DNA of 64,000 bases from an uncultured bacterium (GCA_963843795.1 CAWJLW010000006.1:1302001-1366000), one strand, 5' to 3'; counted from the first letter of the stretch, positions 6,813 through 23,569 are shown. Numbers and translations are program-made. The notes: generated from the sequence alone by a model not told the origin.

Positions 6813-7826
6813 TTAAGCGCGCGGATGAGCTTTGCGATAAGCGTCGCGCAAATGGCTGGTTTCCACATGCGTGTAAATTTGCGTGGTTGAAATATCGGCG
6901 TGGCCCAGTAACTCTTGAATCGCGCGCAAATCGGCGCCATTAGCGAGCAAATGAGTGGCAAAGCTATGACGCAAACTGTGCGGACTCACCCAATTGGGCA
7001 AACCGGCGCGTTCGGCGTGTTTCTTGACGATTTGTCCCAACAATTCGCGGCTCAAAGCGCGGCCCATGTCAGATAAAAAAACGATGTCGCTCACGCCGCG
7101 CCGCGCAAAGTTTCTGCGCGCCCGCGTGCCCTTGGCATCTTCCAATTCGTCTGCCGCTCCGCTGAGTTTGGGGCGCGCGAAGGCCAGATAATTATCCAGC
7201 GCTGCCCGCGCAACTCCTGCCAAAGGCACCATACGTTCTTTGCCGCCTTTGCCGCGGCAACGGAGGAAATTGCGCTCCAAATCGATATCGCTTAAACGCA
7301 AAGCACACAATTCTGCCGCGCGCAAACCCGAAGCGTAAAGCATTTCCAAGAGGGCTCTGTCGCGCACGCCGCGCGCATCGGCATTGCCGGGCGCTTCAAC
7401 TAAAGAACGCATTTGCTCGAACGATAAAATGTGTGGCAAGCGTCGTCCGGTGCGAAAACTGTCCAATCGCGAAGTCGGGTCGGGCCAGTTGTTTTCGCGC
7501 GTTAAAAACTTGTGCCATGAACGCAGCGCGGCCAATTTTCGCGCAATCGAAGCCTGAGCATACGTTTTATTATCGACCTGCGCGCTACTCAATGCGCGCA
7601 AATAAGCGGCGATGTGGTCGCTGTTAATCGCGTGTGGTGCGTTGATTTGCTGCTGTAAAAGCCAGCGCGCATACTGCTCCAAATCACGCCGGTAATTGGA
7701 AACTGTGTGAATTGAAACGCCGCGCTCGACGCGTAGCGCGTCGATAAACGTTTCGATTTCGCGTTCAAATTCGGCAGCGTTTTCAACGGTGAAATGATGC
7801 ATATAAATTCCTGGAATTGGAGACAC
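6813..7826 (-). CDS. xerD: Site-specific tyrosine recombinase XerD
   Basis: 'RDRALLEMLYASGLR', 'GKGGKERMVP' and 'HSLRHSFATHLLANGADLRAIQELLGHADISTTQIYTHV..AHPRA'. The true start may be 7802. Confidence 0.88.
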   Translation of the reverse strand: MSPIPGIYMHHFTVENAAEFEREIETFIDALRVERGVSIHTVSNYRRDLEQYARWLLQQQINAPHAINSDHIAAYLRALSSAQVDNKTYAQASIARKLAALRSWHKFLTRENNWPDPTSRLDSFRTGRRLPHILSFEQMRSLVEAPGNADARGVRDRALLEMLYASGLRAAELCALRLSDIDLERNFLRCRGKGGKERMVPLAGVARAALDNYLAFARPKLSGAADELEDAKGTRARRNFARRGVSDIVFLSDMGRALSRELLGQIVKKHAERAGLPNWVSPHSLRHSFATHLLANGADLRAIQELLGHADISTTQIYTHVETSHLRDAYRKAHPRA

Positions 7827-8329: not shown

Positions 8330-9106
8330 ATGAAAATTCTGAAAACTGGTCTTGTTTCCATTACTTTTCGCCAACTTTCGCCATCCGAAATCATTGATTT
8401 AACTCAGCGCGCCGAACTCGATGGAATCGAATGGGGCGGCGATGTTCATGTGCCGCACGGCGATTTGCAAAGCGCGCGGCAAGTACTTGCACAGACCAAA
8501 GCCGCGAATTTACAAGTCGCGTGTTATGGTTCGTATTATCGCGCTGGTGTTTCGGAACGCGAAGGTTTGAGTTGGTCGCAAGTACTTGCCACAGCGAAAA
8601 CGCTTGAAGCGCCCTTGATTCGTGTGTGGGCCGGAAATCGCGGCACCGATGAAAGCGATGCCGCGCAAATTCAAAACGTGATTGATGATTTAGGGCGCAT
8701 TTGCGAAATCGCAGCGCGCGAAAATATTGCCGTCGCGCTGGAATTTCATGGCGGCACCTTGACCGATAGCGGCGAAAACGCGCTGCAAGTACTTTCAGGT
8801 GTTCAGCAGCCAAATTTGAAATCTTTGTGGCAGCCGCGCGTCGCGCAAGCCGTTGAAACGCGCTTGCACGATTTGGAATTGGTCGCGCCATATTTATCGA
8901 ATTTACACGTTTTTCAATGGGACGCGCAGCGCGCGCGTTTGCCATTGAAACAGGGCGAAAATGAATGGGGCAAGTACTTGCAGATGGCTTGCAAGTACCT
9001 GCAAGACGATGATGACGAACATTTTGCGCTTTTGGAATTTGTGCACGATGATAGCGTCGAGCAATTATTGCAGGATGCACAAACGTTGCGAAAGTTAGTT
9101 GGCTAA
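8330..9106 (+). CDS. Sugar phosphate isomerase/epimerase (AP_endonuc_2 TIM barrel)
   Basis: 'GLVSITFRQL...GIEWGGDVHVP...GSYYR...IRVWAG...EFHGGTLTD'. Confidence 0.85.
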   Translation: MKILKTGLVSITFRQLSPSEIIDLTQRAELDGIEWGGDVHVPHGDLQSARQVLAQTKAANLQVACYGSYYRAGVSEREGLSWSQVLATAKTLEAPLIRVWAGNRGTDESDAAQIQNVIDDLGRICEIAARENIAVALEFHGGTLTDSGENALQVLSGVQQPNLKSLWQPRVAQAVETRLHDLELVAPYLSNLHVFQWDAQRARLPLKQGENEWGKYLQMACKYLQDDDDEHFALLEFVHDDSVEQLLQDAQTLRKLVG

Positions 9107-10286: not shown

Positions 10287-12215
10287 ATGAACCAAACTCC
10301 CACGGAACTTTTAAAGCAACATTTCGGATTCAGCACTTTCCGCGACGGTCAGCAGCAAGTCATCGACGCCATTTTGAATGATGGGCGCGCCTTAGCAATT
10401 TTTCCAACCGGCGGCGGCAAATCTCTTTGTTATCAACTGCCCGCTTTAGCGCTCGAAGGCGTGACTTTAGTGGTTTCGCCTTTGATCGCTTTGATGAAAG
10501 ATCAGATTGATTTTCTGCAAAGTCGCGGCATTGCCGCCGCACGTTTGGATTCAAGTTTAGATTTCGCGCAAACGCGCGCGGTAAACGACGATTTGCGCAG
10601 CGGTCAGTTGAAACTGCTTTATGTCGCGCCCGAACGTTTCAATAACGAACGTTTTTTGAACATTCTCAAAAGCGCGCCGATTGCGCTCATGGCGGTCGAT
10701 GAAGCGCACTGCATTTCCGAATGGGGCCACAATTTTCGGCCCGATTATCTCAAACTCGCCCGCATCGCGCGCGACCTGGAGATTCCGCGTTTGCTGGCTC
10801 TGACCGCGACCGCAACGCCGCCCGTCGCGCAAAGCATTTGCGAAGGTTTCGAAATTCCGCAAGCGCACGCAATCAATACTGGTTTCTATCGCCCGAACCT
10901 GCAAATGTGCTTGACGCCATTACAATCGCGACAGCGCGAAAGTTTGCTCTTGAAACGTTTGCAAAGCCGCGCACCCGGTTCGACGATTGTTTATGTCACT
11001 TTGCAACGCACAGCCGAAGACATCGCCAGTTTTTTGGAGAGACACGGCCTGAGTGCGCGCGCTTATCACGCGGGCATGAATTCCGAAGTGCGCAACGAAG
11101 TGCAGGAATGGTGGATGGCGGGCGACAATCGCATCGTGGTGGCGACAATCGCGTTTGGTATGGGCATCGACAAGTCGGATGTACGCTATGTTTATCATTT
11201 CAATTTGCCCAAAGGTTTGGAAAGTTACGCGCAGGAAATTGGGCGTGCCGGACGCGACGGTGCGCCTTCGACCGTCGAACTTTTGGCGTGCCGCGATGAT
11301 GTTCCTGCGCTGGAAAACTTCGTTTTTGGCGATACGCCGCCGCGCCAATCTTTGGAAGCTCTGGTACAAACGGTTTTAAATTCAGAGGATGAATTTAATT
11401 TCAAGGAAACCGATTGGTCGGGCCAGTTCGATTTGCGACCTTTGGTCTTGAAAACTGCCTTGACTTACCTCGAACTGGATGGCATTGTGCGTCAGGGCAC
11501 GCCGTTTTATGCGGGCTATGAAATGCAGCCCAAAGCGCCATCGGAAGAAATTTACGCCGCATTTGGCGAAAAAGCGGGCGATTTCCTGCGCCGATTATTC
11601 GAAACTGCCAAAGTTGGGCGCATCTGGTGGAAAATTGAACCCGAAAGCGCGATGCAAGTACTTGCCTGCAAACGCGAACATATCGTGCGCGCGATGGGCT
11701 TATTGGAGGAGCGCGATTTGGCAATTGTGCGCGCGGCGGACGTGCGCCAGCGTTATCATTTGCTGAAGCACGACGCGAACGCTGAACAATTGGTCGATGG
11801 CTTGATGGAACGTTTCGCGCGCCGCGAAAACGTTGAAATTCGCCGCATTAACGACGTTCTCGAACTGGTCGTAAACAATGGTTGCCAGACCAACGCTCTC
11901 GTCGGTTACTTTGGCGAAATGCGACAGGAACCGTGCGGCCATTGTTCGTTTTGCCTCACCCAAAAAGCCGCAATTTTGCCGCCCGCGCCGCCACAAGTCG
12001 ATTTAAATTCAATGATTAATAGAAACGAGTTAGAAAAATTACGTTCAGAGCATTTTGATGCGCTGGGCACGCCGCGCCAAACGGCGCGCTTTTTGTGTGG
12101 CCTGAGCAGTCCGGCTTTGTCGCGCGAAAAGCTGCACAAGCACGAATGGTTTGGCACTTTGGAGACGCAGCGCTTCGGCGTGGTTTTGGAATGGTTAGGA
12201 AAAAATCGAGCGTGA
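10287..12215 (+). CDS. recQ: RecQ-family ATP-dependent DNA helicase
   Basis: 'PTGGGKSLCYQ', DEAH box 'VDEAHCISEWGHNFRPDY', 'QEIGRAGRDG' and Zn-binding 'CGHCSFC'. Confidence 0.92.
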   Translation: MNQTPTELLKQHFGFSTFRDGQQQVIDAILNDGRALAIFPTGGGKSLCYQLPALALEGVTLVVSPLIALMKDQIDFLQSRGIAAARLDSSLDFAQTRAVNDDLRSGQLKLLYVAPERFNNERFLNILKSAPIALMAVDEAHCISEWGHNFRPDYLKLARIARDLEIPRLLALTATATPPVAQSICEGFEIPQAHAINTGFYRPNLQMCLTPLQSRQRESLLLKRLQSRAPGSTIVYVTLQRTAEDIASFLERHGLSARAYHAGMNSEVRNEVQEWWMAGDNRIVVATIAFGMGIDKSDVRYVYHFNLPKGLESYAQEIGRAGRDGAPSTVELLACRDDVPALENFVFGDTPPRQSLEALVQTVLNSEDEFNFKETDWSGQFDLRPLVLKTALTYLELDGIVRQGTPFYAGYEMQPKAPSEEIYAAFGEKAGDFLRRLFETAKVGRIWWKIEPESAMQVLACKREHIVRAMGLLEERDLAIVRAADVRQRYHLLKHDANAEQLVDGLMERFARRENVEIRRINDVLELVVNNGCQTNALVGYFGEMRQEPCGHCSFCLTQKAAILPPAPPQVDLNSMINRNELEKLRSEHFDALGTPRQTARFLCGLSSPALSREKLHKHEWFGTLETQRFGVVLEWLGKNRA

Positions 12216-12241
12216 AAGCGTGCTGCAGGTACTTGCGGCGC
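12215..12241. repeat. Variant palindrome copy; left direct repeat of the WD40 gene
   Basis: AAAGCGTGCTGCAGGTACTTGC (12215-12236) is identical to 13410-13431. Confidence 0.9.
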
Positions 12242-12243
12242 GA

Positions 12244-13371
12244 TCAGCTCAAATCCCAAAATAAAATCGCGTTGTCTCCGCGCGCAAACAAGCGTTTGCC
12301 ATCGGGCGAAAACGCCAGTGCAGGCGGAACGAAAATTCTCGTGGGTGATGACATGCCGATTGAGCGTGTGGCTTTGATGGCACCGGTCACGCTATCGAGC
12401 AGTAGAACTTTGCCTTTCATATATTGATAGGCAGCGATGGTACAATCATCGGGCGAGAAAATGGCATCACAAAATTGCTGATTTTGATAGGTCTTTAAAT
12501 CAAACTTTTGAGCTTTTGTTGTCCACAGTACAATATTTGAGGTTAAATCATAACATCGGATAGGTGCAAAATCTTTATAGTTTTCACTTGAGTTATAGTT
12601 TCCCAGCGAACTAGCAGCAATGAGGCGTGTGCTGTCGGATGAAAACTTCACGCTCGTAGTGTTCTTACTCGGAATGCGATGAAGTAATTTGCCGTTTGCT
12701 GCTGAATATATTTCGATAGGATCATCGTTATCGTAAGGCCCTATGCACGCCACAAATTTTCCATCAGGTGATAAATCTACATCTCGCGAATTCGATGGGC
12801 CACGGCGTTTCCATTGCGTGCGCACTTTCCCATTGCTAGCATCGACAACCCAAAGTTTTTCCCCGCTGGATAGAACAATTGAACGTCCATCGCGTGAGAA
12901 TTCGGCCTCCGAAACAAACTTGGGAAAAGTCCATAAACTTTTTTGTGTGGCGACGTCGTAGAGCGTCCAATTTTCTACCACGCGCGAAAAACCGATTTGT
13001 TTCGCATCGGGCGAAAACGTCAAAGCCTCGATGTCCCAACCATTGGTAAAACCTTTGGCATCGCGCGTATAAACCGGTTCTATTTCGGCAAGTGGCTTTC
13101 CTGTGCGCGCATTCCACAAATGAACTTTTCCACTGCCTTCTTTCCAAGTGCCGTTTTTACCGTTTCGCGCCCCGCCAGTTGCCAAAAGTTCGCCGTTGCG
13201 CGACAACGCCATCGAACGAATATATGTATCGGGCGTGGTCATCAAAACTATTGGCCAGCCCAAAGCGTGACGCACGATTTGGCCGCCAAAAGTCATCGTG
13301 CCTGCGACAAATAAAAACAGTAAGGGCGCTGCCCACAACAGTTTTTCGCTTTTCGTCCACGTTCGTTTCAT
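12244..13371 (-). CDS. WD40/beta-propeller repeat protein with N-terminal membrane anchor
   Basis: Repeated 'FSPDG/FSRDG/LSPDG...LWD' blades; the 3' half is visibly AT-richer. Confidence 0.85.
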   Translation of the reverse strand: MKRTWTKSEKLLWAAPLLFLFVAGTMTFGGQIVRHALGWPIVLMTTPDTYIRSMALSRNGELLATGGARNGKNGTWKEGSGKVHLWNARTGKPLAEIEPVYTRDAKGFTNGWDIEALTFSPDAKQIGFSRVVENWTLYDVATQKSLWTFPKFVSEAEFSRDGRSIVLSSGEKLWVVDASNGKVRTQWKRRGPSNSRDVDLSPDGKFVACIGPYDNDDPIEIYSAANGKLLHRIPSKNTTSVKFSSDSTRLIAASSLGNYNSSENYKDFAPIRCYDLTSNIVLWTTKAQKFDLKTYQNQQFCDAIFSPDDCTIAAYQYMKGKVLLLDSVTGAIKATRSIGMSSPTRIFVPPALAFSPDGKRLFARGDNAILFWDLS

Positions 13372-13406
13372 GACTGCTGTTTAACACACTTTGCCCCAAA
13401 ATTGGC

Positions 13407-13442
13407 AAAAAAGCGTGCTGCAGGTACTTGCAGCGCACTTTT
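13407..13442. repeat. Variant palindrome copy/terminator; right direct repeat of the WD40 gene
   Basis: AAAAAAGCGTGCTGCAGGTACTTGCAGCGCACTTTT. Confidence 0.9.
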
Positions 13443-13448
13443 CGTGTT

Positions 13449-14465
13449 TCAGCGTCGCCATTGATAGCCGAAAGCCAAGTTGACATCGGGCGCGATGTTA
13501 CCGAAAAAAGGCGCGTTGTAGTTGTGATAATCGCCATTTTCGGACAGCGAAAACCAGTAGCTTCTATTGCGCCCAACATCGTGTTTATAGCCTATGGAAC
13601 CGATGACCGACGTGCGGTCGGCGAACGGATTGCCGGTCGTGACGACCCGCGTGGCGGCATCGACCTGCGCAATAATCGACGCGCGGCTGCTGCGTTTCCA
13701 TTCCAAGCCCAAGCCGCCCTGCACGCCGCTGTGGCGCACGTTGGGAATGTTGGAATTGCCGAAAAATGCGCCGCCCGCGCTGGCGAAAATGGCGACCTTG
13801 GGCGCGAATTGATAGCGCGCATCGATTATCGCGCCGCCATCGAAACCGCCGCTGCCCAAAATGTTGCTTCCGCTGCCGGTCGGCAGTTTTATGCCTAAAC
13901 GTACGCCGGAAGCAAATTTGTTATGGGTTAATTGGCGTTGCAGACATATTGTCGTGTCACCCAATCCAAAGGCGCTACCTTGGTCGATTCCAACGCCGTT
14001 GGCATCGCGGAATGAAAAAATCGAGCGATTGTCGGGCGTGTGGCTGCGTCCCTGTGGATTATCCAACCCGTTGCCCTGAATGCCGAGCAGACGATGATAA
14101 GCTTGAATCGGTGCGTCCAGAAATCCACCGTTGCGCGCGGTCAGATTGGCGCGAACGCCGATTTCCCATTTGTGCCCCAAGCCACGCGCGTAAGTAATTT
14201 TCAAACGCTGCGTTTCAAAATCTTCGCGCACGCTTTGGCCTTGCGGCCCATCGTCGGGCAACAGTAAATTGTTGGCGATGTCGAGTTCAGCGCTCCATTG
14301 CACTGAATTACGTTCCAAAATATCGGGATTATGCGCGGGAAAATGCAGAAACGCCGATTGCAAAGGCCGCTCGTTTTCGACTGGGAGTGGGCCGCGCCAA
14401 TCGCTTTGCGCATGTGAAGTTTTTAACGAAAGTGCGCTGAAACAGAGAAGAAGTTGAATTTTCAC
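13449..14465 (-). CDS. DUF3187-like outer-membrane/secreted protein
   Basis: Signal peptide, 'DFETQRL...WEIG...GGFLDAPIQAYH' and an aromatic, beta-strand-like C-terminus. Confidence 0.6.
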   Translation of the reverse strand: MKIQLLLCFSALSLKTSHAQSDWRGPLPVENERPLQSAFLHFPAHNPDILERNSVQWSAELDIANNLLLPDDGPQGQSVREDFETQRLKITYARGLGHKWEIGVRANLTARNGGFLDAPIQAYHRLLGIQGNGLDNPQGRSHTPDNRSIFSFRDANGVGIDQGSAFGLGDTTICLQRQLTHNKFASGVRLGIKLPTGSGSNILGSGGFDGGAIIDARYQFAPKVAIFASAGGAFFGNSNIPNVRHSGVQGGLGLEWKRSSRASIIAQVDAATRVVTTGNPFADRTSVIGSIGYKHDVGRNRSYWFSLSENGDYHNYNAPFFGNIAPDVNLAFGYQWRR

Positions 14466-20709: not shown

Positions 20710-20761
20710 GCAAGCACAAAAAGCGCGCTGCAAGTACTTGCAGCGCGCTTTTTGTGCTTGC
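20710..20761. terminator. 52-bp perfect palindrome / terminator
   Basis: GCAAGCACAAAAAGCGCGCTGCAAGT|ACTTGCAGCGCGCTTTTTGTGCTTGC, 8 nt after the ABC gene stop. Confidence 0.95.
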
Positions 20762-23534: not shown

Positions 23535-23569
23535 AAAAGCGCGCTGCAAGTACTTGCAGCGCGCTTTTT
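23534..23569. terminator. 36-bp perfect palindrome, bidirectional terminator
   Basis: AAAAAGCGCGCTGCAAGTACTTGCAGCGCGCTTTTT between convergent genes; identical to 20718-20753. Confidence 0.95.

Follow-up and report, generated by a model that had tools for sequence, protein, structure and literature searches.

A 22-bp repeat pair around a WD40 gene belongs to an abundant palindrome family that is likely a DNA-uptake or self-recognition tag

Does a short direct repeat on either side of a single gene betray a mobile cassette, or is it part of something more general? This question is raised by a WD40 gene in a 64-kb stretch of DNA (hereafter the window, 64,000 nucleotides) from the genome of an uncultured bacterium, G000, which is 92% complete and spans 4.3 Mb. 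The original prediction was that the repeat, a variant palindrome, had been duplicated when the gene integrated and that the palindrome might be an attachment site for single-gene cassettes. Judging from sequence, we consider it probable that both repeats simply belong to a 12-letter palindrome family of ~3,000 copies, which likely acts as a DNA-uptake or self-recognition tag, and that no cassette system is built on the word. The relevant features of the window are the following.

6813..7826, minus strand: nearest tyrosine recombinase, with a XerD/XerC-like score far under the integron-integrase cut-off
10287..12215, plus strand: RecQ-family helicase, left flank, with one canonical core in its coding sequence (11654-11665) in gap-free alignment to relatives
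12215..12236, plus strand: copy 1 of the 22-bp variant, arm AAAGCGTGCT plus mutant core GCAGGTACTTGC
12244..13371, minus strand: gene for a 375-aa WD40 beta-propeller protein, hydrophobic over an N-terminal stretch
13410..13431, plus strand: copy 2 of the 22-bp variant, within a full hairpin with T-tracts (about 13409-13442)
13449..14465, minus strand: DUF3187 gene, right flank
20720..20751, no strand assigned: example of the perfect 32-bp common form of the genome-wide palindrome (second example at 23536-23567)

The description of the locus on which the prediction was built proved accurate. The exact 22-mer AAAGCGTGCTGCAGGTACTTGC occurs at 12215-12236 and 13410-13431, both on the plus strand, with no further exact copy in the window and 0 matches in 100 shuffles, and the pair extends to 26/27 identity. 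Between the repeats lies one ORF with a Pfam WD40 match above cut-off and no internal copy of the core, whose 3' half is indeed AT-richer (GC 0.40-0.42 at 12300-12749; GC3 0.42 vs. 0.51). The first base of copy 1 is the last of the recQ stop codon; the copy sits in the 28-bp spacer between the convergent recQ and WD40 genes and has a short right arm. The hairpin around copy 2, between the DUF3187 stop and the WD40 start, is terminator-like on both strands. No sigma-70-like promoter was found at the WD40 locus.

The core of the palindrome, GCAAGTACTTGC, is present in 2,567 exact copies in the 4.3 Mb of G000, or 3,066 when up to one mismatch is allowed, with a median spacing of 1.15 kb. Within the window, an AP-endonuclease-2/xylose-isomerase-like gene (8330-9106) contains five internal copies within its 777 bp and so is the most densely marked of the motif-rich genes listed. 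Using our own gene calls (hexamer model, 3,427 genes), we found a copy in both flanking spacers of 1,058 of 3,405 genes, so that bracketing is the norm in this genome. Since, in addition, 723 of the 928 genes of 900-1400 bp have no internal copy, neither a single gene between copies nor the lack of an internal motif is informative, and only the shared variant calls for explanation. This variant is rare: the exact 22-mer has 3 copies in G000 (the third at C6:3256208), while the mutant core alone is found 127 times, the mutant arm with a normal core 12 times, and the common 22-mer 145 times.

Most copies of the core lie outside genes. We counted 1,799 intergenic copies, 743 coding copies, and 21 at gene edges, i.e., 70% are intergenic at a density 14-fold above that of genes, and a copy sits in 284 of the 437 convergent, 1,105 of the 2,170 tandem, and 239 of the 458 divergent spacers. 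In coding DNA, QVL peptides use exactly the motif codons in 549 of 929 cases (0.59 vs. 0.004 expected). When coding sites were aligned to AGTACT-poor relatives, 68 of 81 site-by-relative alignments (some sites being counted against several relatives) were gap-free; the other 13 (16%, vs. a 5.9% background) were near gaps, hence some copies may be insertions. Perfect arms of 10 or more pairs flank 37% of intergenic copies. The arms vary from copy to copy, 234 of 343 tandem-spacer hairpins have no G-T or A-C pairs, and G-U mismatches in the hairpins are not biased toward the transcribed strand (81 vs. 73), which indicates that the arms are kept as DNA palindromes. Mostly perfect arms with no strand bias suggest local arm copying at the DNA level. 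An argument from wobble polarity was abandoned because there is no such polarity genome-wide. The longest word-free gaps (10.7-14.2 kb) contain integrases or IS110, the word being thinned in the integrase and IS islands of G000. On a motif-poor, IS110-bearing contig, three copies (G000:C4:34017, 60425, and 70998) have 31-37 letters in common and are possibly a repeated mobile end.

The genome-wide test that had been put forward, whether adjacent copies share private variants more often than chance, is negative. Among 2,414 neighbor pairs 400-5000 bp apart, a mutant core is shared by 3 direct and 4 inverted pairs, against 3.1 expected for each, and runs of 22 or more are shared by 16 pairs, against 16.1 expected. 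Strings private to at most 3 copies are shared by 6 direct pairs (vs. 2.2 expected, P about 0.03), one of which is a tandem paralogue duplication (C6:2518555), and by 2 inverted pairs (vs. 2.2). Private strings of 20 or more number 2,157 direct and 2,206 inverted at all distances, and 6 direct and 6 inverted at 0.3-6 kb, where about 5.7 are expected. We also scored pairs by a likelihood that allows for arm symmetry, with 40 shuffles. Of the 2,525 direct pairs, only a tandem duplication scores above the WD40 pair; three inverted pairs match its score, and pairs as good arise 0.72 times per shuffle, with at least one in 57% of the 40 shuffles. No other neighboring pair in G000 combines a mutant core with 18 or more letters in common; at 22 shared letters the WD40 pair is still the only one, with 0.028 neighbor pairs expected, although this criterion was picked after seeing the pair. 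Taken together, these five versions of the test reveal no class of such pairs and leave chance a plausible source of the WD40 pair. Among neighbors, the longest private direct repeat is that of the tandem paralogue duplication at G000:C6:2518555-2521114, which consists of the shared 3' end and the palindrome.

The WD40 gene itself has an outlying composition. Its GC3 of 0.463 (median, 0.598) falls at the 0.28th percentile of 2,472 G000 genes, and it is among the 17 low-score genes of 859 single-gene intervals. However, WD40 homologues have the lowest or tied lowest GC3 in 7 of 8 other loci, so low GC3 is largely a family trait and is weaker as proof of recent arrival. Relatives of 49-71% identity are found in Abditibacteriaceae and metagenomes, at varying loci, including one in Abditibacterium utsteinense (56%) and another in an Abditibacteriaceae bin; from the names of these homologues, G000 would belong in or near the Abditibacteriaceae. 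Full-length relatives of about 50% are present in 2 of 30 relatives (G007 and G016), and 2 of a further 5 have weaker ones. In a tree of WD40 proteins, G000 groups, with weak support, with two metagenome proteins among Abditibacterium-like sequences; in an RpoB tree of 25 of the 27 family genomes (G011 and G036 were left out as fragments), G000 stands apart from genus g2. Transfer of the gene from g2 was considered and is not established, since G000 RecQ also matches g2 best.

In none of the relatives examined is the WD40 gene syntenic, in line with the original prediction, to which vertical synteny would have been contrary. A recQ-DUF3187 or recQ-WD40 junction was found in none of 14 genome recQ loci, 11 wider loci, and 80 metagenome loci (55 of which have 1 kb or more downstream), all from relatives too distant to reveal an empty site, with RecQ at most 70% identical. 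In G001, of the same genus (63% complete, RecQ 63% identical), another gene follows recQ, and on metagenome contig L048, which has upstream genes in common with G000 and a close dialect of the word, a different gene does. One soil run (depth 2-6, assembled into contigs), which may not be independent of the source sample, contains 0.29 of the words. One of its contigs bridges recQ, copy 1, and the WD40 gene (12134-12392, 2 differences) and leaves copy 2 unbridged, thus documenting the filled left junction only; a joint skipping the WD40 gene, or a circle, was absent among the contigs of this one low-depth run. Viral contigs had no WD40 relative and no exact 18-bp palindrome, and the WD40 query gave one weak unrelated match among the genome contigs. 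The idea that recQ and WD40 were ancestral neighbors was dropped, as it rested on a 27-28% paralogue match.

How, then, might the two repeats have come to share a variant? Wandering WD40-bearing DNA may have recombined into the hairpin at the 3' end of recQ, in which case the arm and core of the target would have been copied to both ends of the incoming DNA; the right arm of copy 1, which keeps 6 of 10 consensus letters, could be the donor's. For such a local duplication at the arrival of the gene, the one part of the original prediction that may stand, speak the rarity of the variant (3 copies), the nonsyntenic position of the gene in the relatives examined, and its codon use; against it, equally alike pairs turn up in more than half of the shuffles. 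Because the best nonparalogue direct pair encloses a codon-use outlier, we regard a one-off duplication event at the WD40 locus as evenly balanced, which is our own estimate and not a computed posterior, and we put a coincidental likeness only slightly below that. Neither requires a dedicated recombinase. The energies obtained by folding the empty site in silico (-23.2 vs. -23.4 and -24.5 kcal/mol) were not discriminating.

A broader view would make the palindrome a true attachment site, from which single-gene circles are cut out and into which they are inserted by a host recombinase, the WD40 gene being one such cassette. The rank of the WD40 pair, its post hoc status as the only neighbor pair with a mutant core and so long a shared run, and the low score of its gene all fit this view. 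Integron cassettes, single genes between palindromic attC sites that are moved by IntI and arrayed from attI, offer an analogy, and the WD40 gene also lies alone between palindromic sites. It differs from such cassettes in having no IntI above cut-off in the 92%-complete genome, no array, and no attI, in facing against recQ, and in being flanked by sites that are generic genome-wide words. The best piece matching the integron-integrase profile in G000 (TIGR02249, cut-off 265) scores 85.7 bits and the nearest whole protein, which is XerD/C-like, 144.9 bits. Genome-wide, direct similarity is not above inverted: in the 859 one-gene intervals, similarity over 32 positions is 19.67 for direct, 19.70 for inverted, and 19.63 for shuffled pairs, and the three inverted pairs that score as high as the WD40 pair argue the same way. 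When 214 loci of relatives (2.4 Mb) were compared with G000, 18 sites had extra G000 genes between genes adjacent elsewhere, 7 of them bracketed by the word, and a shared run of 18 was present in 0 of these 7, a comparison of lower power given that the events may be old. WD40 homologues occupy varied loci in genomes that do not have the palindrome, and five such loci have no flanking direct repeat >10 bp. Precedents exist nonetheless: ICENmu appears to integrate at Neisseriaceae DUS sites (PMC7371117), and a link of HIP1 to site-specific recombination is reported (PMC4390886). We thus find no support for the palindrome as an attachment site of single-gene cassettes or for a cassette system built on the word, and consider a cassette recombinase acting on it very improbable.

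The word is a trait of G000 in this exact form, having 0-3 copies in each of 30 relatives. In the family, AGTACT is bimodal, six of the 27 genomes having 2,813-4,733 copies and the remaining 21 having 1-285. The flanks differ among those six genomes: TCGAGTACTCGA has 2,770, 2,510, and 2,261 copies in G009, G015, and G031, CAAAGTACTTTG is the dialect of G001 (23-kb sample), and the looser GAGTACTC that of G012 (sample). In G006, the nonpalindromic AAGTACGGTCG has 1,448 copies on both strands, single or often as inverted pairs 15 bp apart; this word (e.g., G006 C2:67303-67328; loci L138, L139, and L161) has AGTAC in common with the palindromic dialects. One RpoB clade has CAGCCACGTC, unrelated to the AGTAC words, with 2,152, 511, and 458 copies in G016, G007, and G018. 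At loci L149, L150, and L165-L169, CAGCCACGTC is single in genes and forms inverted pairs in spacers, and it is longer and stronger in G016. Further dialects, CAAGTACTTG and GGAGTACTCC-like, are seen on metagenome contigs L048, L062, and L063. The positions of coding sites are common with G000 in 0 of 10 cases in G001 and in 2 of 5 in L048.

Two families of proteobacteria are established cases of sequence-specific DNA uptake, the USS of the Pasteurellaceae being the second uptake-sequence system. For Neisseriaceae, PMC7371117 describes such uptake and DUS that occur as clade dialects. The word of G000 resembles DUS and USS in numbering in the thousands, roughly one copy per 1-2 kb. Its copies are evenly spread, have mostly built up in coding DNA by substitution (as the gap-free alignments and codon choice above indicate), are frequent in terminator-like inverted repeats, and are thin in mobile islands, and the word has clade dialects around a common core (GTAC/AGTAC in 7 genomes); that an integrative element appears able to use such sites is a further trait of DUS. 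Unlike DUS, the word of G000 is by itself palindromic over all of its 12 bp and belongs to an unrelated phylum, and one clade has an unrelated word (CAGCCACGTC). By these likenesses, the word likely behaves as a DNA uptake sequence. By analogy with Neisseria DUS, a putative sequence-specific receptor would favor incoming DNA that carries the word, and recombination following this favored uptake would slowly drive it into the chromosome. ComEC was found in 5/5 genomes checked, G000 included, and also in G010, which has no abundant word in a 49-kb sample; its presence is not diagnostic of a tag role. The 70% intergenic placement is REP-like and counts against the tag reading, as do the coding sites near alignment gaps and the fact that dialects mostly differ in where their sites lie. 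Tentatively, one may go further and picture a third, hitherto undescribed uptake-signal family in Abditibacteriaceae, with palindromic and nonpalindromic dialects turning over between species and a tag that doubles as a landing pad where single genes recombine in and duplicate the site, an extension that we find doubtful.

Two other explanations of the word have to be set against the tag reading. To our knowledge, the role of HIP1, the hyper-abundant palindrome of cyanobacteria, is still open. HIP1 lies in coding and noncoding DNA and is reported to be tied to recombination and transformation (PMC4390886; PMC13756078; bioRxiv 10.1101/2024.09.10.611283). The G000 word is likewise a hyper-abundant palindrome in coding and noncoding DNA, is, like HIP1, rapidly replaced by other words in relatives, entered coding DNA mostly without indels, and has arms kept as DNA palindromes, so it could be HIP1-like, arising from or signalling methylation, repair, or recombination (Chi-like), and no uptake tag. 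It differs from HIP1 in being 12 bp long with A-tract flanks and hairpin arms, and in being mostly intergenic. An orphan N6/N4 methyltransferase is encoded in G000, which would suit a methylation signal, but near-full orthologues (E below 1e-90) are present in 20 of 27 family genomes, some with 1-19 AGTACT sites, and searches of G000 and G001 turned up neither a D12-class nor a C5 methyltransferase. Among these three families, therefore, none tracks the word, and the nonpalindromic words of relatives, present on both strands, also count against a HIP1-like origin, which we rate as unlikely. The orphan methyltransferase gene (G000:C6:2517365-2518135; L227:5365-6135) is conserved in those 20 genomes and broken in two.

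REP/RAYT systems, too, feature short intergenic hairpins that recur hundreds to thousands of times. The same is described for NTS/SsnA repeats (PMC11893778). In its placement, 14-fold denser in spacers than in genes, and in the perfect arms of many intergenic copies, the word looks like such high-copy hairpins, which a HUH transposase (RAYT) would disperse or an Ssn nuclease would cleave, and standalone GIY-YIG ORFs of about 100 aa do exist in G009 and G016. In G000, however, there is one weak partial Y1_Tnp match (E 4e-7), with no repeat cluster, and GIY-YIG matches are confined to ORFs that are 672 and 450 aa long; thus, neither a cognate HUH transposase (RAYT) nor a small, standalone Ssn-type GIY-YIG gene flanked by repeats was found there. 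Moreover, the arms differ from copy to copy and, unlike REP or NTS, 743 copies lie in-frame in genes. We hold a REP/NTS-like origin to be more improbable still than a HIP1-like one, and the tag reading to be the best account of the word.

The WD40 locus as a cassette is at most a single event, and the underlying word matters more. Close relatives in this soil family use a palindromic word, a nonpalindromic word, or none, which offers natural contrasts to find the reader protein, and the same contrasts in Abditibacteriaceae bear on how such words arise and switch. In the open-licence literature, we found no paper on the word, nor on uptake sequences together with Abditibacteri- or Armatimonad-; a search for Abditibacterium with repeat gave nothing related among the matches listed, as judged by title and start of abstract. 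Loss of the word can be as marked as its gain: AGTACT is nearly eliminated in G005, G008, G011, G034, G038, and other g2/g5 genomes, with 1-5 copies in 4-6 Mb where the control occurs 545-1,172 times, which is the reverse of the excess in sister genomes.
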